Shown piece by piece: positions 8,671 to 35,517 of a DNA stretch of 64,000 bases. The notes below the pieces were generated by a model, which did no database searches, had not been told where the DNA came from, and saw only the letters and a program-made list of their open reading frames with translations. This stretch comes from Curvularia clavata. Its lineage: Eukaryota. The stretch is taken from NCBI GenBank assembly GCA_023920165.1, contig CP089279.1, forward strand, positions 1,798,001 through 1,862,000, given 5' to 3'. The stretch's first letter is position 1, and each line of letters begins with the position of its first letter. The translations under genes and the position numbers were made by a program.

Positions 8671-9025
8671 TGTTGTAGATAAGCTACTCAGCTACTCTAC
8701 GACAGAATCCGGGTGCTCAGTCACACCCAGATTCTACAATCAACTTAATCTATAGTCGATCTATCAAGACTATAATCGATCTATAGACATCTGTCTATGA
8801 CGCTAAAGATTACGCAAGCTACTACTAGATAGATTCTGCTAGAATCTACTCTAGCCAATATATATAGTAGTAGAATAGCTAGTAGATAGAAACCAGAGCA
8901 GTTTATACAAAGTCAATTGTATCTATCAACTCTCTCCCCTAGCATATACTACTCACTTGAGTCTTTGATCAAGCTACCTCTGAGTCTACTACTAGTAGAA
9001 CAAGTAGCTACCCCACACTTTGACA
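8671..9025 (+). mobile_element. Solo LTR, ~350-bp family, copy 2
   Basis: TGTTG...TGACA; 5-bp TSD GAATC; inserted in the chromodomain region of Gypsy relic 1. Confidence 0.9.
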
Positions 9026-11134
9026 GAATCTTTTCTACTTTTTGTTCTTCTATATTTTAAATAAAAGTAGCTAGAGGCTTTAGAAGTTTTTATTCTAAGG
9101 ACAGATTTTATAAATCTTTATATAATAGATCTAGAGCGAAAATATTATAAATCTCGATTTTTTTCAGATAGTCTAAGTAGTATAAATACTCTATCTCCTC
9201 AAATATTTTAAAAGACTTCGCTTATTTATAAAATAGTTTTCTACTTGAATAGTCTAACGCAAGATTTTAAATACTTGAAAAAACTATATCTTCTATATTC
9301 TAGTAAATAGAATAATAATAGCAATTGACTATAGTTTACATCCCATTCTAGACTTTCTCTATCTATTTTTTAACTATCTTCTATCTATTATATACATAGA
9401 TAGTTGTTTCCAATCTACCTTTATAGTTAAGTTTATTGATCGAAGTAAAAACGCTGATAAAATGTTTCTAATTCTAACTCTATTAGAGTTTAGGACTATA
9501 TAAAATATAGTATAGAGATATACTGATAGAAAAATAGAGTAGAAAAATTTAAGTATAGTTAATTAATAATAGAAGTCTACTCTAGTTATTTTAGTAGTAG
9601 AATATAAATAGATATAACTTTTAAATAATATATATATTTATAATTTCTATCCAACTATCTATTTCTTTATAGTAGGTAGTTAATAGCTTAACTTTAATAT
9701 TTAGAATCTAGTAGAATTCCAACTAGAATCTTAAAATAAATTATAGTTCTTAGTCCAAGACCATAGTTTTAAATATATAGCTAAATCAGTTCATCTATTA
9801 AATTAATAAGTTGTCTATTTTTTTCATATTAATAGTTTTATAATAGAAAATAGAAATAGACTACTTAAATAACTAGTTAATTATAACTATGATAATATTA
9901 TCATTAAATTAGTTCTAAAAAATATTTTTAAAGTTAATATATAGATACTATACTAGCTAGTTAGAAATTAGTGAAAAATAAATTATTTTTCAAATTTTAA
10001 CCTATTTTAAGTATATCTTTTTATAGACTATATAGTTCTGTATATATTTTTTATAAATAGATTCTATACTCTTCTAGTAGTATTTCTAGAATAGTAGTTA
10101 TTAAGTTTTCTTTACGTTAAAATATGCCAAGAATATCTAGTTATATACTTCTTAAACAAAGTAAATTATAAAAATAGAAATAAAAAAATATATAAGTAGT
10201 TAGAATGAAATAAAAATTTATTTTTAATCTGATACTTATTTAGAAGAGACCTTTACTTTGATTTAAAAAAGATTTAGTTCTTTTATAGAATAGACTTACT
10301 TAGCTCTAGTAAATTCAAAAATATCAACTCTAATATAAGCTTAACTATAAAAAAAAAAATTCTATTTAGAGATAAACTATATAAGTTTTAGTAAGGTTAA
10401 AGTTAATCTAACCTTGAACTAGTATAGCTCTAGAAGAGTCTATGAATAGTTATTAATTTAAACTATTTTCAGATTTTTTAGATTTTACTTTTATTAAAAA
10501 AAAAATATTAGTATAGGTATTTTCTTTTCTAAAAGTATACTACATAAAGAAATTAAAAGATTTTAACTTTTCTAACTATTATACTTAGTAGATATCTAAA
10601 ACTTTAGTAATTATAAAGTATTTAAGAAAATAGTAGTCTAAGTATATATTAATATAAGAGCGTAGTAATAGTAGTTTAGATTTCTACTTACTTAATACTG
10701 TTATAATAGCAAATAGTTTTTTATTATATATTTTTTAGTTTAACTTGGACTTAGATAGAACTTTACCAAAAAATACCATAGGATACTATTTTCTATTTAA
10801 CTACTTTTAGAAAAGAATTCCTATCATAATACTATTAAATATATTAGTTTCTATTTTAGTATTGTACTTAAAATAGTAATATCATACAACAGAAATTACT
10901 AATAGTATAGATTTTAACTTTCTAAAAGTTTAGTTATATTTTAAATTTCATATAAATAGCTTTGAAAAGCTTCAGAAAATAAAAACAAAAATTATAATTT
11001 ATAAGTATTTAGAAATATACTACTAATAGAATCTAGTAAACTCTAGCAACAACTTTATATTAGTAATAGTAGTAGATTAGACGTAATTTTAAAAAACTTC
11101 TATTTTATTAGAATTTATCTCTATATTTTAGTTA

Positions 11135-14100: not shown

Positions 14101-14345
14101 TAAATAGGGGAACTAGCGCGTTAGTAGTAGAGTATAGCTTGTAAGATATTATATATCTTAGTAGTATATCTTTCTATTTGAATTTACTTTATATTAAAAG
14201 CTAAAATTATAAAATATATATTAGCTTTAGAAGAGACTTTAGAAGCTTATTAGAGGGACGCTGTAGTTAGTTGAAGTTAAGATGTTGTGTAAAGTTAGTA
14301 GGGTGGCTTACTCGCTTGCCTGGCTCACTCGCTTATCTAACACGT
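11135..14345 (-). mobile_element. pogo/Fot1-type DNA transposon (RIPed), interrupted by a Tc1 element
   Basis: TA-ACGTGTTGGATAAGCGAGTGAGCC TIRs with an internal direct repeat; ~1.86 kb after removing the insert; antisense homology to the transposase at 27968-29619. Confidence 0.9.
11823..13171 (+). mobile_element. Tc1-type (DD34E) DNA transposon, 1.35 kb; transposase pseudogene ~11949-13034
   Basis: TA TSD; ~32-bp imperfect TIRs; motifs FSDE, VWGAI, HDNA-x-WPPYSPDLNPIE with 34 residues between D and E; several RIP-type stops. Confidence 0.92.
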
Positions 14346-15880
14346 TACTTAAAATATACTCTAAATATTTAGTCTAAGTAATATAGAATTTATTTTTCTT
14401 AATATGAAATTAGAGATCTATTTATCTGAGCTTTTCTATAATTTATTATATATAGTAGAGATAGTTTAGTTCTAATTTAAAGTAGATTAAAATATCATTT
14501 TAATAGACTATATAGAAGCTATCTAAATAATTAATTAATTTATCATTCATATAGTATTAATATATTATAGAGCTATTATATGATTTAAAAGATAATACTT
14601 TGGATTTAAACATTTTATATTTAGTATAAAACGTTATATACTTTTCTAAGTTAGAGTATACTCAGATTTTATCAAACAATATATATATATTAAGCTTAGT
14701 AAAGATTTTCATTTTATAAATATAGACTAGAAGCTTATTAATATATAGTATCAAATATACGTTTTATCAGTAATTAAATGAAGTCTATAGTAATTTATAT
14801 AGATATAGATATTTCTATCCAGCTTTTAAATATAGACAACTAGGAAGATAAAAATGTAGCTACTTGAGTTAATATATCTTTCTCTAAAGTTTTCTATTAT
14901 AAATATTTTAGTAGTTTTAAACTCTTTAATACTCTATTCATATAGAGAGCTAGATTAATTTAGAAAAAAGTCTAGTTAGTATAATTTCATAGTTATATAG
15001 ATGATATTTAGATAGTAATTCTACTACTATCTTACTAAAGATATTACGATATCAATAGTCTGTAGATAGAAATTAGTTCTAAATAAGTTTCGTATTTTTA
15101 AAATTATTTAGCTTTATACGCTTTTTTAAAACATAATTGATTTTATAGATATTTATTATAAAGAATTTATTTTTCTTCTACTTTATAAAAAAATAGAGAG
15201 TATTTACTAAGATAATAGTAATATAAAATAAAAATATTAGTTGAATAGAGTTTTAAGTAAACTTAGAAATAGATAGTTATAAATAAATCTTAGAAAATCT
15301 CAAGTATCTTCTAATTTTTAATATAAAAGTTCTTTAAAAACTATTTTGATTTCAGTAGTTGTTTTTTTTATAGTACGTCTTATTTTTATATATTCTATTC
15401 TATATTAGTATTAATAGAAAGTTATTTTAACTATATAAAAACAGAGAGTATAAAATTAATTATTAGAGAGTATTTAGCTAGCTATATACTTGAGTTTTAG
15501 TTGATATCAAGTTTAAGCTAAAACTATTTTAATCATTCAACTTTGATTATATAGTTTTATATCTCTAAATGTATAATTATAAAAAGATAGTTATAAATTC
15601 TTTTTTATTAATTTAGATATATAACTAAATATTTTTATCTATTTAGTTTAGACTTAGTTTCAAAATTCTTTAATTATCATTTTAAAAAAAAAATTTTGAA
15701 GAGATCTAAAGAGAACTAGAAAGAATATAAGTAATAATAAGATTCAAAAATAAAAGTTTTAGGCTCTAGTATTAACTCAAGAGTATAAGCTCATACTAAG
15801 CTTTTTTGAATAAAGAATTTTAGAGACTAAAAAGTATTTTCTTCTAAATAAGTAGAATAAATTAATCTTGACTAGGTTAT

Positions 15881-17038
15881 TTATTTATTTATGTTTTTAT
15901 TTCCTATAATTAGCTCGCCTATAACAATTAGCCCAAAATATATATTATATAAATAAGCGGCAGGCCGCCCCTCAGCCTACTAAAAATTAAGAAGTTAAGA
16001 TAAAGGACACTGTCTAAGTAGGGATTCAAACGCAAGGCCTTAGGCTCTAGACCTTAAATACTAAATATCTTAGATACTAAAGATTATCTAATCTCTATCT
16101 TAAAAAGTTAGTACTAGTCTAGATAAAACTAAACTATAAAATAATAATAACTATCCTATTAGATATCTAATAATAGATAGCAAAATCTATACTTAATAAA
16201 CTATAATTATAATAAAGATATACAGCATAAAGTAGTAGAATAGCTTATAGCTATTTATAAGTACTCTTCTCTTATAAACTTAGTTTTTAGTCTAGTAAAT
16301 TTATTAATATTACTCTCTACCTAATTTCTATCTCTTACGCAACTAATAATCTTTTTTAAAATTGTAATTTAACTATATTATTATACTCTATTAATCTATC
16401 TAAACAGCGAGAGATTATAGTTATCTTTATACTAAACGCTATATTTGCTTTCTATAATAGAATAGATATTAATGTCTTTTAAAATCTCTAGAAATTGCTC
16501 TCTAACTAGCCAAGGTATTTTAGCTATCTATTAGCCAAAAACTACTCTACCTTACTAAAAAAGTACTAGAGTAATAAAATTCGACTATACAAAATGTTAA
16601 CATTCTATACTACAATTATTAATAGCTAGAAAGCTCTTCAACTATATAAATTTAGATTCAACTTAATCTAGAAGATCTAAAAGAGATAGCTTAGTTAAAC
16701 TACTTATAACTAGCTTTATAATGATATAAGCAATATCTAATAGGCTATTATAGCCTAAATACTAACTAAAAAGTAGCGCGAATTTAAAGTAAAATTTTAG
16801 TCTAAGAAGAGTCAACATTAGATAGGGGCGTTGTTGTATTTTATTAGGGTAGAGTTAGAGATAGTAGAAGTTAAAAAGATAGAGATAGAGGATATTGATA
16901 TCGCCAATATAAGAGAGAGAGTTAATAATATATCAATCTAGCTTTATAGAGCTAGATATGCTGTGACAATTAGTTTAAAAATTAAACTATAACCTATAAA
17001 ATGTTTTATAAGATATTCTATACAAGGCCGAAGCTAAG
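15881..17038 (-). mobile_element. SINE-like retroelement, subfamily 1, copy F (longest, ~1.16 kb)
   Basis: (TTTA)n tail at left, AGGCCGAAGC at right; candidate 8-bp TSD TAGGTTAT (15873-15880, 17039-17046). Confidence 0.78.
16375..16941 (+). pseudogene. RIP-destroyed ~188-codon passenger ORF of the SINE-like element, function unknown
   Basis: Frame runs without indels from ATA (RIPed ATG) at 16375 to TAG at 16941; internal stops are all TAA/TAG; TATAAGTA at 16256; the un-RIPed copy B reads the C-terminus as EVKEVEMEDVDVADTREGVNDMSI*. Confidence 0.6.
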
Positions 17039-17291
17039 TAGGTTATATTTATTTATATCTAAAATAGAGAGTTTTTTTCCAATTCTAATAATTTTTTATT
17101 TAGTTTTTCTCTAAAAAGTATTTATATACTTTTGTAATCTTTTTTTTTTTATTCTAATTTCTTAGATTTAAAAAATAAAATACTAATTTATATAATATCT
17201 AGATTTTATATAGTTATAGTAATTATTTATAGTTAGCTTACTATTTAGTAAAGAGATCTTTGAAGAAAATCTAAAAGTATTAAAATAAATA

Positions 17292-19547
17292 CAGTGGGGG
17301 TTCATAAATAAAAAGTACTAAAAAAAGTAGTAGTTTTAGAACGACTAGAACTCGGCCGATAAAATAGCTAAAGATATAAAAGATACCATTATGTATAGGG
17401 ATTAGTCAGCAGTTTCAATCTAGTATTTTAGATATAGCTTAGTAAGCATGTATGAAATGCAATAAATTGTCCAAGTAGATTGAAGAAAACAAGCAAAATA
17501 AAAGCTATTCTTTCGCGCTTAAATTTTTGGATATTTATCATATTTAGTGTACATATATAATATATCTATATAACGTGGTTCACAAGCGAGCGGCTCACCC
17601 AACCAAGCGGCTCACGCCCCACCAGCGCGCCAACGTCGACACTACAACGCGTTATGTCTCAGCAACGCGATAATCAATTAACTTATCCTAAATCAGATCT
17701 TTAACTTGCTCTTTTTAATGTCCAATCGCAACGTGTTTAAAGCTAAAGACGTGCTGTCTCTATCTATAACGTGCCTCAAAGAACTTTGTCTTACCAACGC
17801 GCTGGAAGACGCTCTCGACGCGACTGCGAACCGAATTCAAAGCGCCTAAATAAGCTAGAAGAAGAGGCTATAGTTAAGCGTATTCTTAAAGAATCTACGC
17901 GAGGATTTGCGTCTATAAAGGCTGATATTTAAGTAATAGCTAATAAACTATTATATAAGCAAGAGAGCAACCTTACTAGTAAGAACTAGGTTGATAACTT
18001 TGTCAAGCGAACTCCTAAGATCCGTACGCGCTAGAGCTATCTCTATAATCACCAGCGAGCCGCCTACGAGGATCTAGTGGCTATCTAACGCTAGTTTAAC
18101 TTAGTCCAGGCGATAAAGCAGAAGTGGGGTATTATAGATAATAATATCTATAACTTTAATAAGACTGGCTTTATAATAGGTAAGATTTTATTATAATTAG
18201 TTATTATAGGCTTAGAAGAATATAGTAAAAAGAAGCGGGTACAGCTAGACAACCGTAAGTAGGTTACTGCGATCTAAGGCGTAGGCGCGTCGGGTCACTA
18301 GATACCACCCTTCGTTGTCTTTACGGGTAAGGTGCTTATTAACGTCTAGTTTGAAAATTTGCCTGCCGACTAGGTTTTTGAAATTAGTCCTAATAGCTAG
18401 ACGAATAATCAGCTTAGTATTGTTTAGCTAAAGCACTTTAATACCTATACAAAGAGGCATACTATAGGTGGGTATCGACTGCTAATTATTAACGGCTATA
18501 AGAGCTACTACTCCGTCGAATTTCAAGATCTTTGTAAGGAGAAGAATATCGTTCTTCTCTACATGCCTGCGCACTCGTCTCACCTATTGCAGCCTCTTAA
18601 CGTCGCCTACTTCTCGCCGTTAAAGCGCAAGTATGGCGACGCTGTTTCAGGCTTGGCACGCAACCACACCAACTATATCAGCAAGAAGACCTTCCTGCTA
18701 GCCTTTAAGGCGGCTTTTGAGCAGTCTATCACGAAGGAGAATATCTAAGCTGGCTTTAGAGGTGCTAGTCTAGTCCCACACGACCCACAGGCTATACTAT
18801 CAAAGCTTAATATGGTAGTGCAGACACCATATCAATCACCACGACGGGCAGCCGCCTAGGAGGCGCAGACACCATATAACGCGCGCGAGGTTGAGGCTCA
18901 AATTAGTCTTATTCAACAAAGCGTGAGAAGGCGCCGTGGGTCTTCTGCCAATTCACTTACTAAGCAGATCGCGCAGTTGAGTAAAGGGGCTTAGCAAATA
19001 GCATATAAGATAGTGCTTCTAACAGAGAAAATTACTACTCTTTAAGCGGCTCTTGACGAGTTAAATAAGCATAAGAGCCGCAAGCGGCGATATATACGGA
19101 TAGAAGAGACTCTTACTATAGGCGAAGTACAAGAAGTATTAGCTAAACAGGCGGGTAGTAGTCGTGGCGACGGTGAGAGTGCGTCGAAGAGGGTGCGAGG
19201 AGAGAGGCGGTGCGGGCGTTGTAAGCAGACTAGACACAACGCTCGTACCTATACAGTTAAGATAGATAGTGCAAGTAATAACGGCGATTCTAATAATTAA
19301 ATTAGTATATCGTAATAGTTTATTGACTGTGATAAAAGACCGTAATAACGTGTCGACGTCGGCGCGCTGGTGGGGCGTGAGCCGCTCGGTTGGGTGAGCC
19401 GCTCGCTTGTGAACCACGTTATATATAATTTATATTTCTATAGCTATATCTATTTATCTAAATAAATAATAATATAAGATTATAAATTTTAGCACTAGCT
19501 TACGTAACTAATAGCTTAGTCAGCTATTAGTCAGCTTATAGTATATA
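17292..19547 (+). mobile_element. Left end of a long-TIR Tc1-like element, interrupted by pogo elements
   Basis: TA-CAGTGGGGGTTCA TIR of the 5694 type; 19470-19545 is homologous to the pre-ATG region of the 33068-35178 element. Confidence 0.65.
17573..19419 (+). mobile_element. pogo/Fot1-type DNA transposon, full length, RIPed transposase from ATG 17654
   Basis: TA-ACGTGGTTCACAAGCGAGCGGCTCA TIRs; motifs PAHSSHLLQPL and C-terminal RRCGRCKQTxHNART; 1847 bp. Confidence 0.93.
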
Positions 19548-19720
19548 ACGCTAAGGATCAGCAAGCTGGCCAGATCAGCAAGCTGGTAACCCTATCTAAC
19601 CTAATTTAACTCTCTTCACCATTAATCTATAACGATATAGTCAAATTAAATAAAATTTAACAAATATAATTTATTATCTAGATTTATCTAAAGTAAGAGT
19701 ATAATATCAAATATAGCAGT
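19548..19720 (+). mobile_element. Left-end fragment of another pogo-like element
   Basis: TA-ACGCTAAGGATCAGCAAGCTGG with an internal direct repeat typical of pogo TIRs; truncated at the junction with Gypsy pol. Confidence 0.55.
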
Positions 19721-22700
19721 TTGTGTATATTAGCAGCGCGCGCTAGCGTCGCTAACTGCCCTTACTCTACTCTATCTCTATAACTACTCTTTCTATCTCT
19801 AAAGTAAGCTACTAAGTCTACTATATCTAGAGTACTCTACTAGAAGTACTATATTCACGCGGCTAATTCTACTTTTATTACTAGCACTAATTTGCTTCAT
19901 ATAGCTTTTTATTCTTTTCTATAAATATTACTACTAATTATATTATGTATTTATACTGCGATGTCTTTAGCAAGATAGTGGTAGAGCTACTGCCCGAATA
20001 TCGCCTATACGATTATAAGATTGTACTAACTGAACCTTTTCCAAATTAATTTAGTCCTCTATATAAGTAGAGTACTAAAGAACTTAAAGCTACTAAGATA
20101 TTCGTAATAGAAAACCTTAGAAAAGGATATATTAATCTAAGCTACTGCCTTTTCGCCTCTCTAGTCTTTTATATTCAGAAACCAAATAGAGATATTTGTA
20201 TCTATGTAGATTACCGCCAACTTAACGCAATTACTAAAAAGAATACGTATCTAATACCACGTATTAATAAGCTTCTAGCCCACACTTATAAGGCAAAAAT
20301 CTTTACCAAGCTTAACATACATACGGCATTTAATAAGATCTGAATATACCCTGACTTAGAGGAGTATACTATATTCCGCACTAGATATAGAACTTATAAG
20401 TCTAAAGTATTACCTTTTAAATTATATAATAGCCCTATAATATATTAACGCTATATAAATAATATATTAATTAATTATCTAGATAGCTTCTACATAGTCT
20501 ATCTAGACAATATTTTAATCTACTCTAGATTAGAACTGGACCACCCCCGCCACGTATAATAAGTCCTAGAAAGACTTAGGCAAGCAGGTCTCTAAATTAA
20601 TATTAAGAAAAGCGAATTCTATATTACTTAGACCAAATACCTAGAGTATATTTTAACTAACTAAAGTTTGGAGGTAGACTCTAATAAAGTAGAAGCCCTT
20701 TAAGATTAGGTCTAACCTACTACTATTACTAGTATAAAGTCGTTCCTAGAGTTTACTAGATTCTATAGATAGTTTATTCCTAAATATTTATAAATTATAA
20801 AACTTCTCCTCGCCTTCTAGAGCCTTTTAAGACTATTTGTATAGAATTTAGAGTATAACTAAGCTTTTAAAAAGTTAAAATCTATACTGCTAGCAATTTA
20901 TATATTATACTACTACCATCTAGAGTATAATACTAAGGTAGAGACTAACGCGTCTAATAGCGTTATAGTAGGCGTTCTTTCCCAAAAGTAGCTAAATAGA
21001 AATTAGTATCCTATAGCATTCTTTAGCAAGGTCCTATCCAGGTCTAAGCTAAACTAGAAAATACATAACAAAGAACTATTCGCCATCGTAACGGCGTTTA
21101 GCAAGTAGCGACCTAAACTGCTATTAGTACGCTCTCGTGTTAATGTGTACTCAGACCACCATTCCTTCAAATACTTTATAACTACTAAAGTCCTAAATAC
21201 CCGCTAAGTACGATAGATAGAAGAATTAGTATTCTTTAATTTCTATATCTAATACACCTCTAGAAAGAATAATATTTATACTAATATCTTTTTTTAATAA
21301 GAGTAAGATATAAGAAATCTAAAAATAGTCTAAATTAATAACTATTCGGGGGTCCTCCTAGAACTATACTAACTTAATAACTAAATTAACTCTAAACTTG
21401 CTAAAACCTATATAGCCTAACTCTAAGCAGAATCTTTCTCTTTACTTATAGTTGAGCCTATATTAGAGCTAATATCTTTTAATTCGCTAGAGCTAATCGA
21501 GTCTATTCTATAAGAGAACTAAACTTTATTTAAAATAAAGTAAAGGTCCCTTTTAGATAGATACTAAATTAAAAATAGACTCCTACTCTATTCTAACTAC
21601 CTATATATTTCTTCCACCTCTACTCTTATAACTTACTTTATTTAGAAAGTATATAACTAGATATTCTTAGCGCACCCTAGTATAAAGAAGACCTACTAAC
21701 TACTATCCTAGAAGTACTACTAGAAAGGTATAGAATCTATCTATAAAAGATATATATAGAATTATATAGCCTATAGAAAAGCCTATTCTAGATAGACCCG
21801 AACTCTAGAGATAATTTATTTTTTACTAATTTCTAACTAGCTAATATAGCACCTATATATTAACTTTAAAAAATTTCTCTAAGATTAATCTAGTTACGAT
21901 ATAATTATAGTCGTAATTAACTAGTTATCTAAGCAGGCTATCTCTATCCTCTACTATAAGACTATTAATATAAGAGGAATAGCTAACCTATTCGTATAAT
22001 AGATGTACTAATTTAGCTATACATCTAAAACTATAGTCTCTAACTAAGGACTATAGTTTATTTTAAGCTTCTAGTTAGAATTCTGCTAAATTCTAGACGT
22101 TAAGATTAAGCTATTAACTATCTACTATAAAGAAATAGATAGTTAGACAGAGATTATAAATAAGTATATTAATTAGAGATTACGTCTATTTATATTCTAC
22201 TACTAAGATAACTAGAGTAGACTTCTATCTTTAATTAATCGCGCTTAAATTTCCCTACTATATTCTTCTATTAGTATATCTCTATACTATATTCTATATA
22301 GTTCTAAACCCTAGTAGAGTTAGGACTAGAAATATTCTACTAGCCTTCTTACCTCTACTAATAAACTTAACTATAAGAATATATTAAAAATAGCTATCTA
22401 TATATATAATGTATAGAAGATAGCTAAAGAATAAATAGAGAAAGTCTAGAATAGGATATAAACTATAGTTAACTACTATTATTATTCTATTAACTAGAAT
22501 GTGGGAGATATAGTTTTCCTAAGTATCTAAAATCTCGCGTTAGACCATCTAAGTAGGAAGCTATCTTCTAAATAGAAAGGACCCTTTAGAGTATTTAAAA
22601 AAATAGAATATTTATATTACTTAGACTTTCTAAAAAAGTTCTAGATTTATAATATTTTTACTCTAGATTTATTATATAAAGATTCTTAAAACCCCCTTCT

Positions 22701-24525
22701 AGAATAAGAACCTCTAAAGCTTCTGGCCACTCCTATCTAAAGCGTAGAAGAATAGGAAGTAGAAGAAATTCTAGTAAGTAAGTTATACTACTTAAATTTA
22801 AAATACTAAGTATAGTAGGTTAGATATAATCTAGATTCTACTTAGTATCTAGCTTTAAACTTTATAGGAGCCCTATATAAGCTTAAGCTCTTCTATAAAT
22901 AATATTCTACTAAACTAGGACTTTTATATTCTATTAGTAAGTAGATTATAATATAGAAATAAAATATAGAAAATATAACTTTACTATAAAATAATAAAAT
23001 TTAGAAAAAAGAAAAAATAGAAATTTTATTAAGTATTAGTAATAAAGAAAACTTAAATCTAAATTTTATAACTACTAGTAAACCCTCTAAATATTATCTT
23101 ACTTAAAGCTTAATATTAGAGCGCTTTAGCTTAGCGTTAGCTATCTTCTAGTTAACTGCATCTTTATCCTCCTCTAAAAAGAAGGATAAACTAGACTATT
23201 TCTCTAACTTCTTAACCTGAAGGCTAATCTAGACGCTATCTTAAGCTGATCTAGCCTTAAAACGCAAAAGGCGTCTTTCTATACTATTAACTATATTAAC
23301 TAATTTTAAAATACTATTTTAGATATCCCTTAGAACCTAGTTCTAGGCGATAAGAAGCTAATTAACTAAAAGCTTTTTTTTCTAGGATCTAATAACTTAG
23401 ACTTTATAGATAATATCTAAAGTAGTAGTAGTAATTTAATTAAGTAATATCTCTATATTAGTATTAACTATAGGGCTATACTAAGCGATAGTATATAGCT
23501 TAATAGTATTAACTAAATTATAAAACTTCTTAAAGATGTACTTAGGAATCTATCTAGATTAGCTAAGCTATAAATAGTAAAGGAAAAGAAAAGTAAACTT
23601 ATAGAATTGCACTTCTCCTTCTACTAGATATAATAAAGACATTTCTTAGAGGAATTGGATAGATAGGCGTAAGTAATATCGAACTAACGGCGCGCTAAGG
23701 CGCGGATAGCTCGTAGATAGATAAAGCGATACGTATCTAGTAGCGTACTAGATAGATAATAAAGAGATATAGCGAAAACGAGTGCGTTAAGTTATAACTA
23801 ACTTATTTTAATTAAGAAGTATAGAGAAGAAAACTTAGTAGTAATACTATATTATTATTAATATATATACTAGAGGAGTAAATAGTCTTAGTATACGTAA
23901 CTTAGATAGCTATTAGACCCTAACTATAAATAAATCGCCGGCGACTTAGAGCTCTAATCAAAGCGTCCAGGCCTGTCTAGCAGGTGAAAGTAAACGGCCT
24001 AGCGGCTAGGCAGCAAGATAGCAGCGCCACGTAAGTACTAGAGTGGCTACTGAGGCTTAGGCACAGAGGCTTAAGTGAAGAACATGCACGGCCACAGGAG
24101 CCACACCAGAACTAGAGTATCCCATTAGCTAGAGTGGCGTAGTATAGGGAAAATCTAGAGAAATCAGGAACGAGAGACCTAATAGTGCAGGAAAGAAGAA
24201 TGACCACTAGAACTAATAGCTATAGGACTAGCTGTCTACTAGGAGGAGGGGTAATATAACTATATATAGACTAAAACATACCCTAGCTAGAATAGCTTAC
24301 TAAGATCTAATTAAAGGCTAGGTCAGATCTAATAAAGACCCGCCCCTAGGTATAAGTACTAGCTACCTTCTATAGATATTTGGTAGATTTTTAATATCCT
24401 TTCGTACTAGGTCTATAAGTGTCTACTAAATCTAAGGTATTTCTGCTGTCCCACGCACTTCCATATACATTTGAGTAACACTTCCTACCGGAACCGATTC
24501 GACTAGTCTTGCTCGCGCCGTTACA
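19720..24525 (+). mobile_element. Chromodomain Ty3/Gypsy relic 2: RT-RNaseH-integrase-chromodomain, long 3' region, PPT and 3' LTR (24255-24525)
   Basis: De-RIPed motifs LPEHRPYDH, CVDYRQLNAIT, YLDDILIYS, ETDAS, IHDKEL, VSDRGPQF, TDGQTE and chromodomain; PPT AGGAGGAGGGG; LTR TATAAC (RIPed TGTAAC)...GTTACA. 5' LTR and gag are missing. Confidence 0.92.
23000..23760 (-). pseudogene. Antisense spliced accessory gene of the Gypsy family (Cys-cluster plus helical domain), RIPed
   Basis: Minus-strand frame ...KKCLY[C]xQQKEKCNS | 53-nt intron 23602-23550 ([G]TAAGT...GCTAAT...TAG) | IPKY...LLVNQLLIAQNQVLRDIQN...; region and splice-like signals recur in relics 1 and 3. Ends approximate. Confidence 0.6.
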
Positions 24526-25953
24526 CTAAAAAGGCTATTAATAGAGATATTACTAGAAGCCTAAAAAAGATAAATAAAAGATTGATATAAGAAAATAATC
24601 TAAATATTTCTTTTAGTATACTTAAAAGAGTATTAAAAGAACAAGGCTAGGTAATAAATATTTGTTTAAAAAAAAATATATTAAACAAACAAAAAGCTAA
24701 AAAAAAACTAGCTTATTATAAAATATAGCTGACTAATCTAAGTGATATAGCTTTTACTAAGATTATATTCTCGGACGAGTCCGGGATTGAGCGTGGGCAT
24801 GGCTCTAGAGCTGAATTCTCTAGAAATCGCCGAAAAAAACGACAAAATCCAAAAATATATTCTATAAGAAATATAAGTACGTTTAAAAATATTTCTAATA
24901 AGCCAAAGTGTAGTACTATATATATATAACTATATTTATGTTATATATTTTATATATCTAGCTAACTAAGCCGATTTTTGGCCTATGATATAACTATCCA
25001 TGTTTGGGGAGCTATTTGGATAGGTGGAAGATCCGATCTAGTGGTTATAAAGACACCAAATAGTGTGATTAGTCATCGAAATTACCACTATATAAGAAAA
25101 TATCTAATACCCCATATGAAGCCAAAGTTACAAGCTAGTAAGTTATATATATTGTTCTACTAGTTATATATATATAACTATATATACATATGTATATATC
25201 ACTAACTAGTCATATTTTACTAATATATATTTAGGCTGGCATTTCCAACAAGATAACGCTAAAATCTATAAAGCTAGAAACGTTCTAGACTGGTTTAGGC
25301 GCCATCATATTAAGATTTTTGAATATCTAGCGCATAGTCCGGATTTAAATCCAATAGAAAACGTATAGAGCTTGCTTAAAAATTAGCTTACTAAGCTGCT
25401 AGCTAGTAGTCTTAGTACTAGCGCTAGTGAGACTAGTATAACTACGTTTATTATAGCTATTCACTAAGAGTAGCATAAAATACCACAAAAAGACATAGAT
25501 AGCTGTATTTTATCTATGCCAAAACGCTATAATAGAGTAGTTGAAGCTAAGAGCTAGTATACAAAATATTAGATAGCAATTTACTATTATTATCTAATAT
25601 ATTTGCTAAGACATAACTTATATATATGTCCTTTAATTTAGATATATAACTATAGCTAGAAAAAATATATATTATATATATATACTAATAGTATATAAAG
25701 ATAGCTATATAAATTCTAAAATCCAAGCGCGAAAAATACGTGTAAAGTTGACGTTTTCTTTTCTCTCTAGTTTCGCATTTTTGTATAACAGCTATATACT
25801 TATTTAATTATTTTTAAAACTATAGACCAAAAAAGCTAGTAAAGCTCCATACAGATCTTAAACCTTTATATTTTTAGCCATCTTATTGGTTGAGATATAG
25901 CCTAGTGAAAAATGCTATTTTTCCTTGTGATCTTTTTTCGTGTCACCCCACTG
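24526..25953 (+). mobile_element. 3' two-thirds of an intron-containing long-TIR Tc1 element, RIP-inactivated
   Basis: Homologous to 33068-35178: FSDESG, VWGAIW, QQDNA, SPDLNPIE, same two intron positions; TAG/TAA stops; right TIR ...GTGTCACCCCACTG-TA. Confidence 0.88.
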
Positions 25954-26077
25954 TAAATAGGAGAGCAACCTTACTAGTAAGAACTAGATTAATAACTTTA
26001 TTAAGTGAACTCCTAAGATCTATACACGCTAGAGCCGTCCCTATAATTACTAGTAAGCTATCTATAAAAATCTAGTA

Positions 26078-27429
26078 TAGTACTACGCCAAAAGTCTTGC
26101 CGCGCTAGCCGAATCCTCACCCCCACCGAAGTTGATCACCTATGAAAAAAACAGCTGTAACTCCACCAACAATAGCATTTTTTTCAAATTTTAAAAGCAG
26201 ATATATTTTCTAGATACTAGTATTTAGTTTGCCAGCCTCGCGCGCGCCGGCAGGCCAAAAGGCGGCGCGGCATGGACGCAATTAGCCGAGAAATCAGCTC
26301 GTCTGGTATCCGACTCCAGCAGTCTTTTAAAGCCTCGCAAAACCTATGCTACTCGTCTTAGGCTTGGCTATAATTTCTATATTGTGGATATATATCCTAC
26401 ATCTTTGTTTTAAGTGTCCACTAGAGGTGTTCAATTGGATTCAGATCTGGTGAGTAGGCTGGCCAGTCAAATGTCTGAATCTGGTGATCCGCGAGAAACG
26501 TCCGGACGACTCGGGCCGTGTGTATGCGCGCGTTATTATGCATAAAGATCTGATTTGAACGGTAGAAAGGGAGTAGGCCTTGATGAAGGGCTTAGATGTA
26601 ACTTTAGCTAGAGTAGCCACTATATTGGGCATTGGGATCCCTTTCTATGATTATAAGAGGACTCCGCTAAGCGCGGCCTCTTCTATCTAGCTATATAGCC
26701 CCCCATACCATCTACTATAAGCCCTGTTTTAGATCTATTTCGCTAATTATATCCTTGCTCCATTTCTCGTGTGGATAGCGAAAACACTACTCTCGTTAGG
26801 CGCCAGAGCCCTTCTAAATAGAGCACTCGTCTGAGAAGATAACCGTGCGGCGATACTAAGGGAAAAGCCGGTGCCTATAGGCAAACTTATAGCGCCGATA
26901 GGCAAAAAGACGGGTCAGTTTTGGCCGGCCTTTGCAGCGATATTTGCGTAGGCTAAAGCTTGAAAGGACCCGGCATAAAGTATAGCTGCTAGGGGGCTTA
27001 GAAGTCGAGCCGTCGGCATATATAAAGACGGCTTCTTTAATAAGTTATTTATATTATATTTTAGGCGATTGATGTGTAATACGATAGATAATCTTTTTCT
27101 AACGATTAGATAGTATTGTAGGACGGCCAGAGCGAGGCCTATCGCAAGTAGTGTGGGTGGTGTTGTACTTATTGTATAGTCGTTGGATGGTAGAGGCATC
27201 GCGGCGGAACACTATCGCGACTTCTTAATAGCTTGCACCTGCCTACAACATGCCGATAGCGATATTACGCTCGTCCACAGTCATGTTGCGACCTCTAGAC
27301 ATCTTTTGCAGTACTGCTAGATCGCATTGGGGTAGTGGAGCGTTGGTGGTGGGCGCTCGAAGTAGTGGGTAGTGTTAGTGGTTGGTGGGGTGGCTAGGTT
27401 ACCGAGGCAAAACTTTTGTCCCATAGCTA
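26078..27429 (-). mobile_element. Tc1-type (DD34E) transposon, diverged relative of 11823-13171, RIPed
   Basis: TA TSD; TIRs homologous to the 11823 element; minus-strand IFSDE and WPAYSPDLNPIEH; 1352 bp. Confidence 0.9.
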
Positions 27430-27886
27430 TAGCTATCTAACGCTAGTTTAACTTAGTCTAGGCAATAAAATAGAAGTAGAGTATTATAGATAATAATATC
27501 TATAACTTTAATAAAACTAGCTTTATAATAGGTAAGATTTTATTACAATTAGTTATTATAAATTTAGAAAAATATAGTAAAAAGAAGTAGATATAGCTAG
27601 ATAACTATAAGTAGATTACTACAATCTAAAATATAGGCGCATTAGATCGCTAGATACCATCTTTTATTATCTTTATAGATAAGGTGCTTATTAACGTCTA
27701 GTTTAAAAATTTGCCTACTAACTAGATTCTTAAAGTTAGTCCTAATAGCTAGACGAATAATTAGCTTAGTATTATCTAGCTAAAGTACTTTAATACCTAT
27801 ATAAAGAGATATACTATAGATAGATATTAACTGCTAATTATTAATAGCTATAAGAGCTACTACTCTGTCAAATTTTAAAATCTTTA

Positions 27887-29741
27887 ACGTAGTGGATAAG
27901 CGAGTCGCGCAGGCAAGCGAGTCGCGCACCTCACCAACTTTCTTACCCTATCATACTTGCCTCCATTATGGCTCCACGCCACGCTACTCAATTACTCTTA
28001 AACGAATTAGATATCTAGCTTACTATACAGTCTCTTAATTCTAATTAAATTCAAATAGGCCAGCGCGCAGCTTCGATCTTTAATATACCTAAATCGACAT
28101 TACGTAATTGAAGCGCTGGGAAGCGTGCTAGACGCGATTGCCAGCCTAACTTAAAGAAGCTTACTTAGATAGAAAAGGAGGTAATTATTAGCTATATATT
28201 TGATCTAGATCAGCGCAGATTTGCGCCTACCTATACTACCGTGCGCGATATAGCTGATAAGCTGCTAGCTGCGTGCAGCGCTGGCCAGGTTGGGCAGAAA
28301 TAGCTAGCTAACTTTATCAAGCGTACAGACAGTCTTACAACGCGTTTCAATTAGGCGTATGATAGGCAGAGAGCTCTATATAAAGATCTAGTCTTAATTA
28401 AGAGCTAGTTTAAGCTTATAGAGTAGACGAAAGCCAAGTACGGCATCTATGATGAGGACGTCTACAACTTTAACAAAGCTGGCTTCTTAATGGGCAAGAT
28501 TACTACTCAGCTTGTCGTTACAGCGTTAGAAAGAAGATCTCGACTAAAGGCTATCCAGCCAGATGGTCGCGAGTGGGTAACGTTTATCGCTACGATTAAC
28601 GCAGCCAGCTAGTCTATCCCACTATTTCTAATCTTTACTAGCAAGTATCACCTGTCTACTTGGTACGATGAGGCAGAGATCCCACGCGACTGGGCGATTG
28701 CAGTCAGCGATAACAGCTAGACGACTAACGAGCTAGAAGTCGAGTAGTTAAAGCACTTTATTAAGTATACAGAGGGTAAAGTTGTTAGAGCACGCCAGCT
28801 ACTTATTCTTGACGGCCATAAGAGCTACCAGTCACTTGAGTTCCAAGAGCTCTATAAGGAGAACAATATCTACACGCTCTATATGCCGCCTTACTCGTCT
28901 CACCTACTTCAGCCTCTCGACGTTGGCTGCTTCTCGCTATTGAAGCGCGCGTATAGCCGTAAGGTGGAGAGCCTAATACGTAACTATATTAACTATATCA
29001 CTAAGCTTAAGTTTTTACCAGCATTTAAGGCCGCCTTTAATCGCTCGTTTACCTCAGCTAATATCTGCTCTGCCTTCTATGGCGCAGGCCTTATGCCTCT
29101 CCAGCCAGATGTTGTTCTATTAAAGCTTAACGTGAAGCTGCGTACACCTACTCCACCAGCTGTTCTAACAGAGGCTCTCTGGCAAGCTCGTACACCTAGC
29201 AACACACGCGAGCTTGAAGCTTAATCGACGTTAATACGTAATCGCGTTTAGCGGCACCAAGACTTATCACTAGCTTTAATTATTATAGCAATTAGCCAGC
29301 TTAAGAAGGGGGCAGAGATAATAATGCTCTTAGCTGAGCTAATGCGCAATCGAATCGCCAGTCTTAAGATAGCTAATAAGATAGCAATAAAGTGTAGGCA
29401 GCGTAAAAGAAAGCGGATATAGAAGCGAGGGGTGATTATAAAGAGAGAAGGAGAGGATCTACTCGCGCAGCGTAAGGCAGATTAGCAGATTGCTTATAAA
29501 CAGCGCTATAGAGGAGAGCAATCAGGTGTCAGCCAACAGGCTTTAGCGCGCTATAGCAGGTGTAGAGAGACTGGCCATAATGCGCGTACATGTAAGAACG
29601 ATACTATAGTAACTAGTTAATCTACTACACCAATATATATTGAGATAGTCGTATAGTGGTGGAGTTATATGCTGATAGAGGTGCGAAGGTTTGGTGGGGT
29701 GCGCGACTCGCTTGCCTGCGCGACTCGCTTATCCACTACGT
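27887..29741 (+). mobile_element. pogo/Fot1-type DNA transposon, full length, RIPed transposase from ATG 27968
   Basis: TA-ACGTAGTGGATAAGCGAGTCGCGC TIRs; LILDGH, PPYSSHLLQPLDVGCF, C-terminal CRETGHNARTC; 1855 bp. Confidence 0.93.
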
Positions 29742-30262
29742 TATAAAAAGAAGAATATTGTTCTTTTCTACATATCTGCGCACTCGTCTTACTTATTACA
29801 GCCTCTTAACGTTGCCTACTTCTCGCTATTAAAGCGTAAGTATAGCGACGTTGTTCTAGACTTAGCACGTAACTATACTAACTATATTAGTAAGGAGACC
29901 TTCCTACTAGCCTTTAAGGCGGCTTTTAAGCAGTCTATTATAAAGAAAAATATCTAAGCTAGCTTTAAAGACGCTAGTCTAGTTCTACACGACCTATAGG
30001 CTATACTATCAAAGCTTGATATAGTAGTGCAGACACTATATTAATTACCGCGATAGATAGCCGCTTAGAAGGCGCAGACACCACGTAACGCGCGCGAGAT
30101 TAAAACTTAAATTAGTTTTATTTAATAGAGCGTAAGAAATTACCGTAGATCTTCTACTAATTTACTTACCAAATAGATCGCGCAGTTAAGTAAAGAGGCT
30201 CAGCAAATAGCATATAAGATAGTACTTCTAATAGAGAAAATTAGTACTCTTTAAGCAGCTCT

Positions 30263-30612
30263 TGTTGTAGATCTAAGCTAGTCAGCTAATCTACAGTATC
30301 TGGGTGCGTACTTCTACACCCAGAATCAACTTAGTCTATAGTCGATCTGTCAAGACTATAATCGATCTATAGACATCTGTCTATGACGCCAAAGATTACG
30401 CAAGCTACTACTAGATAGATTCTTCTAGAATCTACTCCAGCCAATATATATAGTAGTAGAATAGCTAGTAGATAGAAACCAGAGCAGTTTATACAAAGTC
30501 AATCGTGTCCATCAACTCTCTCCCCTAGCAATCTCTCGTCTATCTAGAGTCTCTCGATCAGGCTGTCTAAGTCTACTACTAGTAGTACTAGCAGCCACCT
30601 ATTACTTTGACA
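30263..30612 (+). mobile_element. Solo LTR, ~350-bp family, copy 3
   Basis: TGTTG...TGACA; 5-bp TSD GCTCT. Confidence 0.9.
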
Positions 30613-30985
30613 GCTCTTAACAAGTTAAATAAGCGTAAGAGCTATAAGCGGCGATATATATAGATAGAAGAGACTTTTACTATAGATAAAGTATAAGAAG
30701 TATTAGCTAAATAGGTAGATAGCAGTCGTAGCAACGGTAAGAGTACGTCGAAGAGGGTGCGAGAAGAGAGGCAGTGTGGGCGTTATAAATAGACTAGATA
30801 TAACGCTTATACCTATATAGTTAAGATAGATAGTATAAGTAATAGTGGCGATTCTAATAATTAAATTAGTATATTGCAATAGTTTATTAACTATAACAAA
30901 AGACTATAATAACATATCGACGTCGGCGCGCTGGTGGGGCGTGAGCCGCTCAGTTGGGTGAGCCGCTCGCTTGTGAACCACGTTA

Positions 30986-33065
30986 TAGTATTACTATGAA
31001 GTTTTCTTTTCTATACTGTTTAATCAAATAAATGAATTATACTCTAATATCTCTATTTTTACTATATTTTTTAATATCTATCTAGTATATTATAAGAAAT
31101 ATAATATTTTTTCTATCTATAAGCTATCTATACTTTATCATACTATTAGTTTAATAGTATTTATATCTATCTATTTAATTTTTTTAAAAGTATATTTATT
31201 ATGTTTAGTAAAAAGAAGAGTATAATTCAAAAAAGTTTACTTTTTTCCTCTTCTATAACTTATAGTTTAGCTAATCTAAATATATTCTTAAGTATATTTT
31301 GAAAAGAAGATTTATAATTTAGTTAATACTATTAAGTTATATACTATTGCTTAGGATAGTTTTATAGCTGAAACTAATTTAGAAGCTATATTAAATCAAA
31401 TTATTATCTGTATTTCCAGTATCGCTTATAAAATCTAAGTTAGGAGATTTTAGAAAAAAACTTTTAATTAATTAGTTTTTTATCATCTAGAACTAGATTC
31501 TAAAAGATATCTAAAAAAGCATTTTAAAATCAGTTAATATAGTTAAAAGTATTAAAAAATATTTTTTATATTATAAAATAAAATCAGCTCAAAATAGTGT
31601 TTTGAATAGCTTTTAGATCAAGATATTAAAAGAATTGTCAGATTTTTCTTTTATAAAAAGAGAATAAGAGTATAGTTAATTAGAGAATAGCTGATACTAA
31701 ATAAAAGTACTCTAATATTAGACTTTAAGTTAAATAGTATTTAAAAAGTTTACTAGCAGTAGTAGGGTTTAAGTCTAAATTTTCTTTGTCATTAATATCT
31801 AATATAGTTTCATTTTTTTTTTTTTTAATTTTATTATTCTATAGTAAAATTATATCTTTTATATTGTATTTCTATGTTGTAGTTTACTTATAGGTAGACA
31901 TGGTAAGAAGATAATTGAAGAAGCTAATGGATGATATCCGATTGATGAGGAAGACGTTTTAGATACGTAGTAGATAGAAATTAGTTAGAGGGTGATATTG
32001 ATTAAGTTGCCAGACTAGAGACTAAGGTTATAAGAATAGAGTATTTATAGTTGGAAGTCATATACTATACTACTATCTTACGCTTTATATCCTTATTATA
32101 ACTATAGTTTATTAAATATAGATTTTACTATCTATAGTTAGATATCTAATAAAGAAGTTATTATTATTTTATAGCTTAGTTCTATTTAGACTATTACTAG
32201 CTTTTTGAAATAAGAGCTAAACAGCTTTTAGTATCTAAGGTCTAGAGTCTAAAGGGCTATATATTTAAATCTCTACTAAGATAGTATCTTTTATTTTAAC
32301 TTTTTAATTTTTAGTAGACTAAGAGATAGTCTGCCGCTCGTTTATATGATGTATATTTTGGGCTAATCGCCGCAGGCGAGCCAATCACTGGAAATAAAAA
32401 TAGAAAGAAATAGTTTACTTATAAAAAGCATACAAAAATTCTAATTTAGTAAAATATTATTTACGAAAGAATTTAGATTTATATAAAACTTCTGTAAAGT
32501 TTAAAGCTAGATACTAAACAGAGTCTAAATTGTATCTAACTTACTATATCTAGTATTCTGGATTTAAATAGTATAATTTATTGATTAGAATCTTTTCTAT
32601 CTTTTTTTTTTTCTAAATTTTGAATAGAAGTAGCTAGAGACTTTGGAGATTCTTACTTTGAAAAAAGGTTTTAACAGTTTTTAAATCATAGGTTTAAAGT
32701 AAAGATATTGTTTGAGTCTAGAATTTTTTAGTAGATATAGATAGTATTAATATCTGAATATTTTTAAGTACTCTAAAAAATCTTTTTTATTGAGAAAAGC
32801 ACTTTCTACTTAAATAGTCTAATATGAAACTCTAAATACTTAGAAGGACTATATTTTACTATTTCAGTTAATGAAATAATAATATTGGTTAACTATAGAT
32901 TATCTACTATTTTAGACTTCCTCTATTTTTTTTTAGCTATCTTTGATATATTATATACATTAGTAGCTTTTTTTAACATATTTTTTCATAGTTGAATTTA
33001 TTGGTAAAAAGATAAGGACTGATAAAATATTTCTAGTTCTAATTCTACTCTAATTTAGAACTTTA
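30986..33065 (-). mobile_element. Chromodomain Ty3/Gypsy relic 3 (3' region, chromodomain, integrase end)
   Basis: Colinear with ~7250-9500 and with the reverse complement of ~22300-23900; very degraded. Confidence 0.75.
31893..32410 (+). mobile_element. SINE-like retroelement, subfamily 3, copy G (5'-truncated)
   Basis: 13-bp TSD TAGTTTACTTATA (31880-31892, 32411-32423); family 3' stem-loop and A-rich tail; lacks the GGCTTCGGCC end. Confidence 0.8.
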
Positions 33066-33067
33066 TA

Positions 33068-35178
33068 CAGTGGGGTGACACGAAAAAAGATCACAAGGAA
33101 AAATAGCATTTTTCACTAGGCTATATCTTAGCTAATAAAATAGCTAAAAATATAAAAGCTTAAGATTTGTATAGAGAATTACCAGCTCTTCTAGTCTATA
33201 ATCTAAAAAAAAGTTTAGTAAGTAAATAGCTCTTATAAAACAAAGCTAAACTAGTGAGAAAAAAAAACGTCAACTTTACACGTATTTTTCGCGCTGAGAT
33301 CTTGCAATTTATATAGCTATCTATATATAGATATATACTATTAGTATATATATATAATATATATTTTTTATAGCTATAGTTATTTGTCTAAATTAGAAGA
33401 TATATATATAACTTATATTTTAGTAAATATATAAGATAATAATAGTAAATTACTATCTAATATTTTGTATACCAGCCCTTAGCTTCCACTACTCTATTAT
33501 AGCGTTTGGGCATAGATAAAATACAGCTATCTATGTCTTTTTGTGGTATTTTATGCCACTCTTGGTGAATAGCTGTAATAAACGTATTTATACTAGTCTC
33601 ACTAGCGCCAGTGCCAAGACTAGAGCTTGGCAGCTTAGTAAGCCGATTTTTAAGCAAGCTCCATACGTTTTCTATTGGATTTAGATCTGGGCTATACGCT
33701 GGATGGTAGAAAAGTGTAATCTTATGGCGCTTAAACCAGTCTAAAACGTTTCTAGCTTTGTGGATTGTTGCGTTATCTTGTTGGAATTTCCAGCCTAAAT
33801 AGATATAGATTAGCTAACTATAACTGTATAGTTAGACTTATATATATATATTTATATATTTAGATATATATATATATATATAAGTAAAAATATATAGCAG
33901 AACCTACCGCGTTTTATATTCGGTTTTATACATGGTATTAGACATTTTCTAATATAGTGGTGATTTCGATGTTTTACTACGCTATTTGGCGTCTTAATAA
34001 CCACTAGATTGGATCTGCCACCTATCCAAATAGCTCCCCAAACTTGGATAGTTATATCATGGGCTAAAAATTGGCTTAGTCAGCTAGATATATAAAATAT
34101 AATATATATATATAGTTATATATGTATATAACTATATTTTGGCTTATTAGAAATATTTTTAAACGTACTTGTATTTTTAGTAGAGTATATTTTTGGATTT
34201 TGGTGGTATTTTGGCCTATTTCGAGAAAATTCGGCTCGAGATCCATATCCACGCTGGATTCCAGACTCGTCAGAAAATATAACTTTTTCAAAGTTAATAT
34301 TACTAAGCTTTTTAAGCTTATTTTTAGCGTAGAGTAGCCGTTTTTTAGCTTTTTTCTCGTTTAAAATTGGCTTTTTTTGACTAGTTGTTATAGTCCAGCC
34401 CTCTGCTTTTAAAACTCTTTGAAGAGTTCTACTAGATATTTCTAGATTATTTTCGTTTAATAATCTATTTTTTGGTTTTTTTGGACTGCGTAGTATATCT
34501 CTATTTAGAGCTCTTATTGCTCTAGAAGTTGTCTTAGAAATTCCGCCTAAACTAGCTCTTTTTGGCTCACTAATAGCTTTATATTTTCGTTTTATTCGAG
34601 CTATAGCGTTATATATAGACCGTGGATTTTTTTGAAAGTAATTTATTATATTTTTTATAGGTGTATTAGCGTCTAAAAACGCTTTGATTTGGCGTTCGAA
34701 ATTCGACAGTTGTGGCTCCATTGTGTGGGGAATACAGTTTTAAGTTGCTAGAAATGAAAAGCTATAGTTATATACTAGTTGATTACTAATAGCTGACTAA
34801 GCTAGTGCTTATGTAAGCTAGTGCCAAAATTTCAAATCTCATATAGCTATTTAACTAGATAGACAACTATAGCTTAAAACTATATATATTATATATAAAT
34901 ACTAATAGTATATATCTATATATAGATAGCTATATAAAATAACAAATATCAGCGCGAAAAATACGTGCAAAGTTGACGTTTTTTTTTCTCTCTAGTTTAG
35001 CTTTGTTTTATAAGAGCTATTTACTTACTAAACTTTTTTTTAGATTATAGACTAGAAGAGCTAGTAAATCTCTATACAAATCTTAAGCTTTTATATTTTT
35101 AGCTATTTTATTAGCTAAGATATAGCCTAGTGAAAAATGCTATTTTTCCTTGTGATCTTTTTTCGTGTCACCCCACTG
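33068..35178 (-). mobile_element. Full-length long-TIR Tc1 element, 2111 bp
   Basis: TA-CAGTGGGGTGACACGAAAAAAGATC at both ends; ~300-bp TIRs; TA TSD. Confidence 0.95.
33457..34721 (-). CDS. Tc1 DD34E transposase, 348 aa, three exons (34721-34169, 34063-33908, 33794-33457), open frame
   Basis: Introns GTACGT...GCTGAC...TAG and GTAGGT...CTAATC...TAG; splicing gives 1047 nt with no internal stop; IFSDES, VWGAIW, FQQDNA, PAYSPDLNPIENVW. Confidence 0.88.
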
Positions 35179-35517
35179 TATATGGAATGGAAATCGGACC
35201 AAATAAAGACATATACAAATGGTGGTAATACAGATTCAATAGTATTCCATATTTTACTCTCTTCATTTCGCTAAAGTTAGATAGTTACAAGGAGTAGAGG
35301 AGAGAGATTTATTGAGTACAACACTAGCGTGGCCAGCAAACCCGTATAGTCCACGAACCGAGGAGATATTTTACTTGTTGAAGAGACTGAGCACCTTTTC
35401 TGACCTAAACCTCGAGCATTCATACTGCGCCTTCATAGTAGAGATTGGTGAGTTGGCTGGTTGAGCAGATGCACCTCTCCAACCCTGTCCTTTAGTCATT
35501 CAACAATCTACTACTCT

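Follow-up and report, generated by a model that had tools for sequence, protein, structure and literature searches.

The element occupying positions 33068-35178 of the window (the whole stretch of 64,000 nucleotides of Curvularia clavata DNA that was analysed) is, as judged from its sequence, an intact and recently copied Tc1-like DD34E transposon of 2,111 bp, hereafter L001, whose gene lies on the minus strand. The most satisfactory account of its composition, to which we assign a probability of about 0.68, is that, through repeated CpA>TpA mutation and selection among copies, a lineage that went on transposing has lost its silent and tolerated targets to a mutator of the RIP type (which converts C to T at the CpA sites of repeats; PMC12543289).

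Structure of the element and of its gene

The features of L001 and of the adjoining DNA, in window coordinates, are as follows.

1..33067, no strand: relic block of repeats, ~35 kb counting L001 at its right edge
24534..25953, plus strand: 5′-truncated, RIP-hit copy of subfamily B (L022) with 8 internal stops and 82% DNA identity
33066..33067, no strand: TA target-site duplication, left
33068..33405, no strand: 3′ TIR, ~338 bp
33457..33794, minus strand: exon 3, 338 nt including the stop, with the second D at 33777-33775, the E at 33672-33670 and the C-terminal GWYTKY; Pfam DDE_3, E 6.9e-16
33795..33907, minus strand: predicted intron 2, 113 nt, phase 1, with GTAGGT (GTAAGT in most copies) and a GCTAAT branch-like site
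33908..34063, minus strand: exon 2, 156 nt, with the VWGAIW motif; size constant in copies and relatives
34064..34168, minus strand: predicted intron 1, 105 nt, phase 1, with GTACGT and a CTGAC branch-like site
34169..34721, minus strand: exon 1, 553 nt, with the ATG, the DNA-binding region and the first D at 34271-34269; HTH_Tnp_Tc3_2, E 6.8e-8
34841..35178, no strand: 5′ TIR, ~338 bp
35179..35180, no strand: TA target-site duplication, right

L001 begins with CAGTGGGG, closes with CCCCACTG and is bordered by TA on both sides, like 10 of the 13 copies in which both ends could be aligned. Its TIRs of ~338 bp bear the CAGT...ACTG termini and differ from each other at 21 positions out of 338, the outermost 110 bp being perfect; counting the flanking bases, the arms are 342 nt long and 93% complementary. 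The spliced exons (553 + 156 + 338 nt) encode a stop-free transposase of 348 amino acids with the triad D151, D243 and E278, 34 residues separating the E from the second D, and with an N-terminal HTH supported by PF01498 above the cut-off and by Atlas neighbours, while Sleeping Beauty (5cr4, E 8.6e-12) can be aligned with exon 3 over its whole length. Everything that the first-pass annotation had described here, namely the 348-residue DD34E frame with two introns, the complete TIRs and the TA duplication, is present, and L001 conforms to the definition of Tc1-like elements given in PMC4054914.

The splice sites are not fixed by the open frame alone, since as many as 46 GT-AG combinations in L001 yield an open frame of more than 300 amino acids; what fixes them is that genomic copies and relatives agree on the exons. 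Exon 2 measures 156 nt in every genomic copy that spans it and a complete exon 3 always measures 338 nt, these flanking exons remaining constant while intron 2 varies from 89 to 153 nt among the complete genomic copies. Furthermore, in six metagenomic relatives (51-57% protein identity) exon 1 is of 553 or 559 nt and exon 2 of 156 nt, both introns are phase-identical and their 5′ ends read GTAAG or GTACG. On these comparative grounds, both introns of L001 are probably removed by splicing. The idea that they could be former coding sequence, suggested by lengths divisible by 3 in a large number of copies, was rejected in view of the D-D spacing of the spliced product, which is 91, and of the introns of 104, 100 and 68 nt present in the relatives.

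In the IR/DR group, to which Sleeping Beauty and Minos belong, each TIR carries an inner and an outer direct repeat; a crude test found no clear repeats of this type in the TIRs of L001, the best local matches being weak (score 16-18) and A-rich. Impala and Crawler, which are ~1.3 kb long and intronless and have short TIRs, are set apart from L001 by this description and, to our knowledge, introns and long TIRs are rare among fungal Tc1 elements. The protein of an intronless Tc1 element of this same genome (L098) is ~30% identical to that of L001 and falls outside its clade. With Sleeping Beauty, Tc1 and Tc3 L001 has in common the TA duplication, the CAGT...ACTG ends, the DD34E triad and the HTH and DDE domains, whereas its ~338-bp TIRs differ from the 12-28 nt typical of Tc1-like elements (PMC4054914) and its two introns and its GC3 of 0.27 with CpA-specific loss are further differences. 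Two fungal Tc1-like elements, impala of Fusarium oxysporum and Crawler of Aspergillus oryzae, are described as active (PMC4054914, PMC9910759). Introns and long TIRs are, on the other hand, not new for Tc1-like elements overall: Minos of Drosophila hydei resembles L001 in that its TIRs are long, at 254 bp, and its transposase gene is interrupted, although by a single intron of 60 bp (PMC2874221), and the host is an animal without RIP.

Copies, selection and location in the genome

A DNA search of the genome (32.4 Mb in 8 contigs) gave 50 candidates, 40 of which were scored; the family has at least 30 loci, at least 19 of them near full length, with 74-100% identity to L001. Five of these 19 copies (L001, L002, L003, L008 and L014) are free of internal stops and frameshifts, the 5′ ends of L008 and L014 lacking 118 and 25 bp, respectively, and the otherwise intact L003 having a stop codon that reads CAG and adds ~23 residues; seven others contain in-frame stops only and the last seven small indels, mostly in A runs. 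The single-base indels of the A runs may be errors of the assembly, in which case intact copies would be more numerous. Most copies carry 0-2 new stops. The purifying selection that had been claimed for the element is borne out by a dN/dS of 0.22-0.31 (NG86) between L001 and lightly hit copies of subfamilies A and B, the ratio being 0.50 and 0.82 against the RIP-hit copies L020 and L023. Because copies 98-99% identical to L001 sit at unrelated TA sites, the sequences point to recent transposition of the family, and L001 is probably a young copy, still competent.

Subfamilies A and B are separated by 117 transversions and by just 9 CpA>TpA changes and, since transversions and non-CpA transitions prevail, their recent divergence was not dominated by RIP. 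The sister copy at 24526-25953 (L022), said to have stops at target codons, does have five of its eight stops at TGG or CAA codons of L001, but it is 5′-truncated and belongs to a different subfamily. Four copies (L005, L006, L010 and L017) look mosaic between sublineages, in that their 5′ and 3′ parts or their two TIRs differ in affinity, with up to 100 differences between TIRs, a pattern that suggests recombination or gene conversion. Still others (L016/L029, L018/L030, L025/L027 and L026) are split by insertions whose junctions start with TGTTA and which are probably other mobile elements, e.g., LTR retrotransposons.

As many as 16 of the 19 long copies are located in eight AT-rich blocks, each contig having a single one of ~34-61 kb. 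Together the blocks amount to ~1% of the genome, and from TA density alone a share of 3.5% of the copies would be predicted for them; the enrichment is overstated because the blocks were located via the copies and have limits that are only roughly placed. The blocks are the following.

Contig C1, ~1727-1764 kb: AT-rich block
Contig C2, ~2445-2498 kb: AT-rich block
Contig C3, ~4276-4315 kb: AT-rich block
Contig C4, ~2096-2130 kb: AT-rich block
Contig C5, ~1985-2046 kb: AT-rich block
Contig C6, ~1798-1833 kb: AT-rich block
Contig C7, ~522-558 kb: AT-rich block
Contig C8, ~405-445+ kb: AT-rich block

In 40 background samples, each 2 kb long, the GC content was never below 0.40, and AT islands outside the blocks also hold copies (L008, L011). 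The AT-rich blocks are likely to be regional centromeres, and the block at 1..33067 of the window is possibly the centromere of its contig. A DNA transposon, discoglosse, is the commonest family in the 35-46 kb centromeres of Podospora pseudocomata, a species that has lost RIP (bioRxiv 10.64898/2025.12.02.690432); unlike in that host, the putative RID gene looks intact here and some copies are RIP-hit, the blocks being candidate centromeres.

The window also contains an element of ~1.2 kb (5694-6909 and near 17284-17572) with related long TIRs (76-84% to the ends of the L001 family) and TA flanks, probably a non-autonomous or decayed relative, for which a window-wide tblastn gave no transposase match. 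Relics of a second, intronless Tc1 family (~28-30% protein identity), to which the open copy L098 belongs, are found at 11961-13031 and 26220-26990, and within the relic block there is an inverted repeat (1342-3039) with arms of 695 bp at 98% and a spacer of 308 bp. A Dicer-like gene encoding a helicase, a Dicer dimerisation domain and two RNase III stretches lies at 54740-59070, ~20 kb from the AT block.

The mutator and its trace at silent sites

The genome has a DIM-2-like gene (PDB 9bap, E 1.1e-50, with a BAH domain) and a second ascomycete C5-methyltransferase, open and spliceable, that is separate from the DIM-2-like and DNMT5-like genes; on the basis of motifs we provisionally take this second enzyme to be RID-like and another to be DNMT5-like. 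Some copies of the family have visibly been struck: the coding sequence of L020 has lost 71 of its 82 CpA/TpG targets, and 18 of the 20 nonsense ones, directional C>T changes are present also in L023, L022 and part of L016, and in L020 and L023 CpG targets are mutated as well. The stops of the killed copies arise both as CAA>TAA and as TGG>TAG, which means that both strands are attacked. Each of 15 subfamily-A copies has undergone 0-6 changes of the CpA/TpG type, and the intronless L098 (361 aa, GC 0.48, 139 targets) is intact, a second open copy of it existing. As read from these copies, the mutator is at work in this genome, sporadically; the methyltransferase genes and the RIP-killed copies agree with the earlier proposal that RIP acts in this lineage.

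L001 had been held to be about as AT- and TpA-rich as the dead relics around it. This is correct as far as TpA/ApT is concerned (1.33 vs 1.34-1.39 in the relics) but not for the GC content, which is higher (0.29 vs 0.22-0.25), nor for the CpA o/e (0.64 vs 0.47-0.48). On standard indices L001 is RIP-positive (composite index 0.55), displaying an excess of TpA and a loss of CpA/TpG: TpA/ApT is 0.73 and the substrate index 1.27 in the host, the latter index being 0.79 in L001. That TpA codons are frequent (ATA 21, TTA 8, CTA 7, GTA 4) while TGG (8), CAA (11) and CAY (10) are kept is also confirmed by the codon counts.

The depletion of targets at synonymous sites, a check proposed in the first-pass annotation, is found on one strand. 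On the coding strand the silent C/T third positions are occupied by C in 8 cases out of 77 before A and in 42 out of 91 before other bases (p=2.6e-7), a trend opposite to that of nine host ORFs (381/575 vs 720/1516); on the template strand, where G is however rare at every third position, no silent CpA loss is seen in L001 (5/24 vs 27/125, p=1). When the expectation is set by random synonymous recoding of the protein with the gene's own third-base use, L001 has 13 silent targets vs 26.0±4.4 expected, as would follow if dispensable targets had been lost, and 72 non-silent ones (52 missense and 20 nonsense) vs 86.0±4.9. CpA depletion is not seen in L098 of the same genome, where silent targets are 37 vs 36.6 expected and non-silent targets 102 vs 96.6. 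Among the 15 subfamily-A copies polymorphism affects 7 of 13 silent CpA sites vs 14 of 76 other silent C (p=0.011), and a weak test of continued purging after the A/B split gave coding-strand p values of 0.04, 0.15 and 0.35. Private changes are T>C in 209 cases vs C>T in 98, which is partly a polarisation artefact; since the T allele is common to heavily hit copies and biases singleton counts, majority-based counts, themselves not independent, were used instead.

The premise that the L001 copy itself is RIP-tolerant is, on the contrary, not supported. The 72 non-silent targets are still in place, compared with the heavy losses of L020, CCA is found at 15 of the 18 prolines (15:1 over CCT), and there is the mentioned lack of a template-strand effect. 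The CCA preference, shared by L026 of subfamily B (12/14) and opposite to that of CCT-using relatives, counts against an exhaustion of targets; a host RIP that spares CCA was rejected as its cause, CCA being mutated 41/41 times in L020. Among the glycine codons of L001 GGT accounts for 1 of 13. With 20 nonsense targets, a hit rate of 10% would leave 12% of L001-type copies without a new stop.

According to the preferred explanation, L001 would be an autonomous cut-and-paste element descended from an old fungal clade whose members are AT-rich and have two introns as well as long TIRs. The spliced mRNA would give rise, as can be presumed from what is known of the family, to a 348-aa transposase that would bind the ~338-bp TIRs and insert the element at TA. 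A repeat-directed CpA>TpA mutator would strike the copies; those struck at essential codons would die, whereas those struck at silent or tolerated sites only would keep transposing and found the next generation, so that silent targets would run out while the frame remains open, and the present composition would be the outcome of this filter across many host generations. In the genome under study the mutator would act sporadically, leaving most copies lightly touched and a subclade rich in non-silent targets, and the L001 lineage would persist not through tolerance but because strong RIP reaches few copies and copying outpaces the hits. Against this explanation stands the lack of a template-strand effect in L001, although the killing mutator attacks both strands. 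The C>T change at CpA is the same as that produced by RIP and by the Dim2 mutator, which the cited papers treat as inactivating (PMC12543289, PMC8016269); unlike in that picture, the signature is here saturated at the silent sites of open, selected genes.

The two-intron clade and the competing explanations

With E<=1e-10 as the threshold, a protein search over 1.84 billion representatives returned 22 proteins; the four that score best end ~15-40 residues past the exon-1 boundary, as expected of intron read-through. A word-indexed protein search for longer relatives gave 879 candidates with none at E<=0.001, and no match to the element was found in a phage collection. A metagenome scan yielded 34 related loci, whose TIRs begin with CAG(T/A)(A/G)GGG(T/C)GACA; splice models are reported for 8 of the 12 loci in which they were attempted, and the six relatives used are those left after L037 and L042 were dropped (contig ends; a poor L042 model). 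Relatives and genomic copies form one clade (support 100/100, stem of 1.28 changes per site) set apart from L098 and from 23 other full-length Tc1-like proteins. Complete open frames of 348 aa are present in L035, L039 and L041, with GC3 of 0.16-0.23, and the silent targets kept on the two strands are, respectively, 2/99 and 0/34, 3/75 and 0/23, and 0/84 and 0/23; silent CpA loss on both strands is common to L035, L036, L038, L039, L040 and L041. L058, 96% identical to L041, differs from it by CpA>T at 24 of 44 sites vs 3 of 72 for CpC. The 85 targets of L001 are the highest total among the clade members examined, the others having 34-65.

From these data a further explanation can be put forward tentatively, namely that the clade was actively hardened, inter-copy selection having acted in favour of codons by which lethal targets are eliminated, essential residues included, so that its members would come through a round of RIP better; the features considered were CCT for conserved prolines and, ahead of essential codons that begin with G, the avoidance of T. 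L035 and L041 contain 34 non-silent targets each, about half of the 68 and 62 that their proteins would lead one to expect (0/500 simulations); in four relatives NCA:NCT is 47:201 while GGA+CGA:GGT+CGT is 33:24, and T is rare before invariant G-starting codons (p 0.016-0.055); each of the 6 conserved prolines is encoded by CCT in L035 and L038, whereas L001 has CCA at five of them. These skews suggest active codon hardening in the relatives but not in L001, whose NCA:NCT is 6:7 at invariant columns with p=0.26 for T-avoidance. Moreover, the lineages are not independent, the codon counts sharing ancestry, a passive filter yields an equal skew at variable sites, and L035 and L041 retain 13-14 nonsense targets, with which a hit rate of 30% would leave ~1% of the copies without a new stop.

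Less likely than not, yet compatible with the exhaustion of targets by mutation and selection, is that the same filter was driven not by premeiotic RIP but by a Dim2-dependent mitotic mutator that slowly turns CpA into TpA in heterochromatin. Such a mutator has been demonstrated in Zymoseptoria (PMC8016269) and would suit an open frame with saturated silent sites because single hits allow stepwise selection; the DIM-2-like gene, the few new stops of most copies and their siting in AT-rich blocks speak in its favour. On the other hand, the loss of targets by L020 while its neighbours were spared is burst-like, and CpG was hit in L020 and L023, whereas the Zymoseptoria process is reported to be CpA-specific (PMC8016269).

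It is very improbable, and already largely refuted, that the AT-richness derives from an AT-rich host without RIP, RIP being irrelevant to the composition. The coding strand is indeed A-rich with third-position G low in all contexts, and a run index lists 33068-35178 under 11 organism codes plus a root metagenome, which is a lead only, but a general AT bias gives no CpA-specific loss on two strands. Furthermore, this reading is removed because near-identical siblings of L041 are RIP-hit and the flanks of some relatives have a GC content of 0.5-0.6, so that the nearest relatives, expected under it in RIP-less AT-rich genomes, adjoin GC-rich DNA; the lineage would have become AT-rich through weathering by the mutator and not through host composition. 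The run index lists in all 20 runs for 33068-35178, of which one is recorded as RNA (share 0.07) and two contain at least half of the words; it is no evidence of expression or of host range, and gives no more than a lead on a possible interspecies spread. Even less probable is that L001 is a dead relic whose frame is open by chance or through a recent duplication of flanking DNA: many GT-AG combinations do open the frame and intron support is comparative only, but 98% identical copies at unrelated TA sites, dN/dS well below 1 and an exon structure conserved in relatives speak against it.

As to novelty, the available portions of PMC5751038, PMC4522978, PMC12543289, PMC9910759, PMC6180176 and bioRxiv 10.1101/2025.06.18.660325 contain no description of this clade, and the literature search gave no account either of it or of a hardening against RIP at the level of codons; Repbase and most subscription journals, where the family could be listed, were outside the search. 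L001 itself is a Tc1 variant, and the interesting part is the possibly hardened clade. The usual answers to the question of how transposons survive under RIP are horizontal transfer, loss of RIP and asexual escape. The clade points to another route, a gradual erosion that would leave few targets in a gene kept under purifying selection. Since the number of targets ranges from 34 to 85 among natural members of identical gene structure, this route can be put to the test. Index-based surveys would score such open elements dead, as the composite index of L001 illustrates, and, with its clustering in one block per contig, the family may be a further DNA transposon that fills the centromeres of a fungus. 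At somewhat less than even odds, all this could be the sign of an old and widespread two-intron clade that is codon-adapted to RIP and active in AT-rich, probably centromeric blocks, the subclade of the window having relaxed under sporadic RIP. If such a codon adaptation is real, silent targets would have gone from both strands, with non-target codons used even at essential residues and damaging targets halved in some lineages, and the clade would provide a single gene in natural forms of both kinds, hardened and relaxed.
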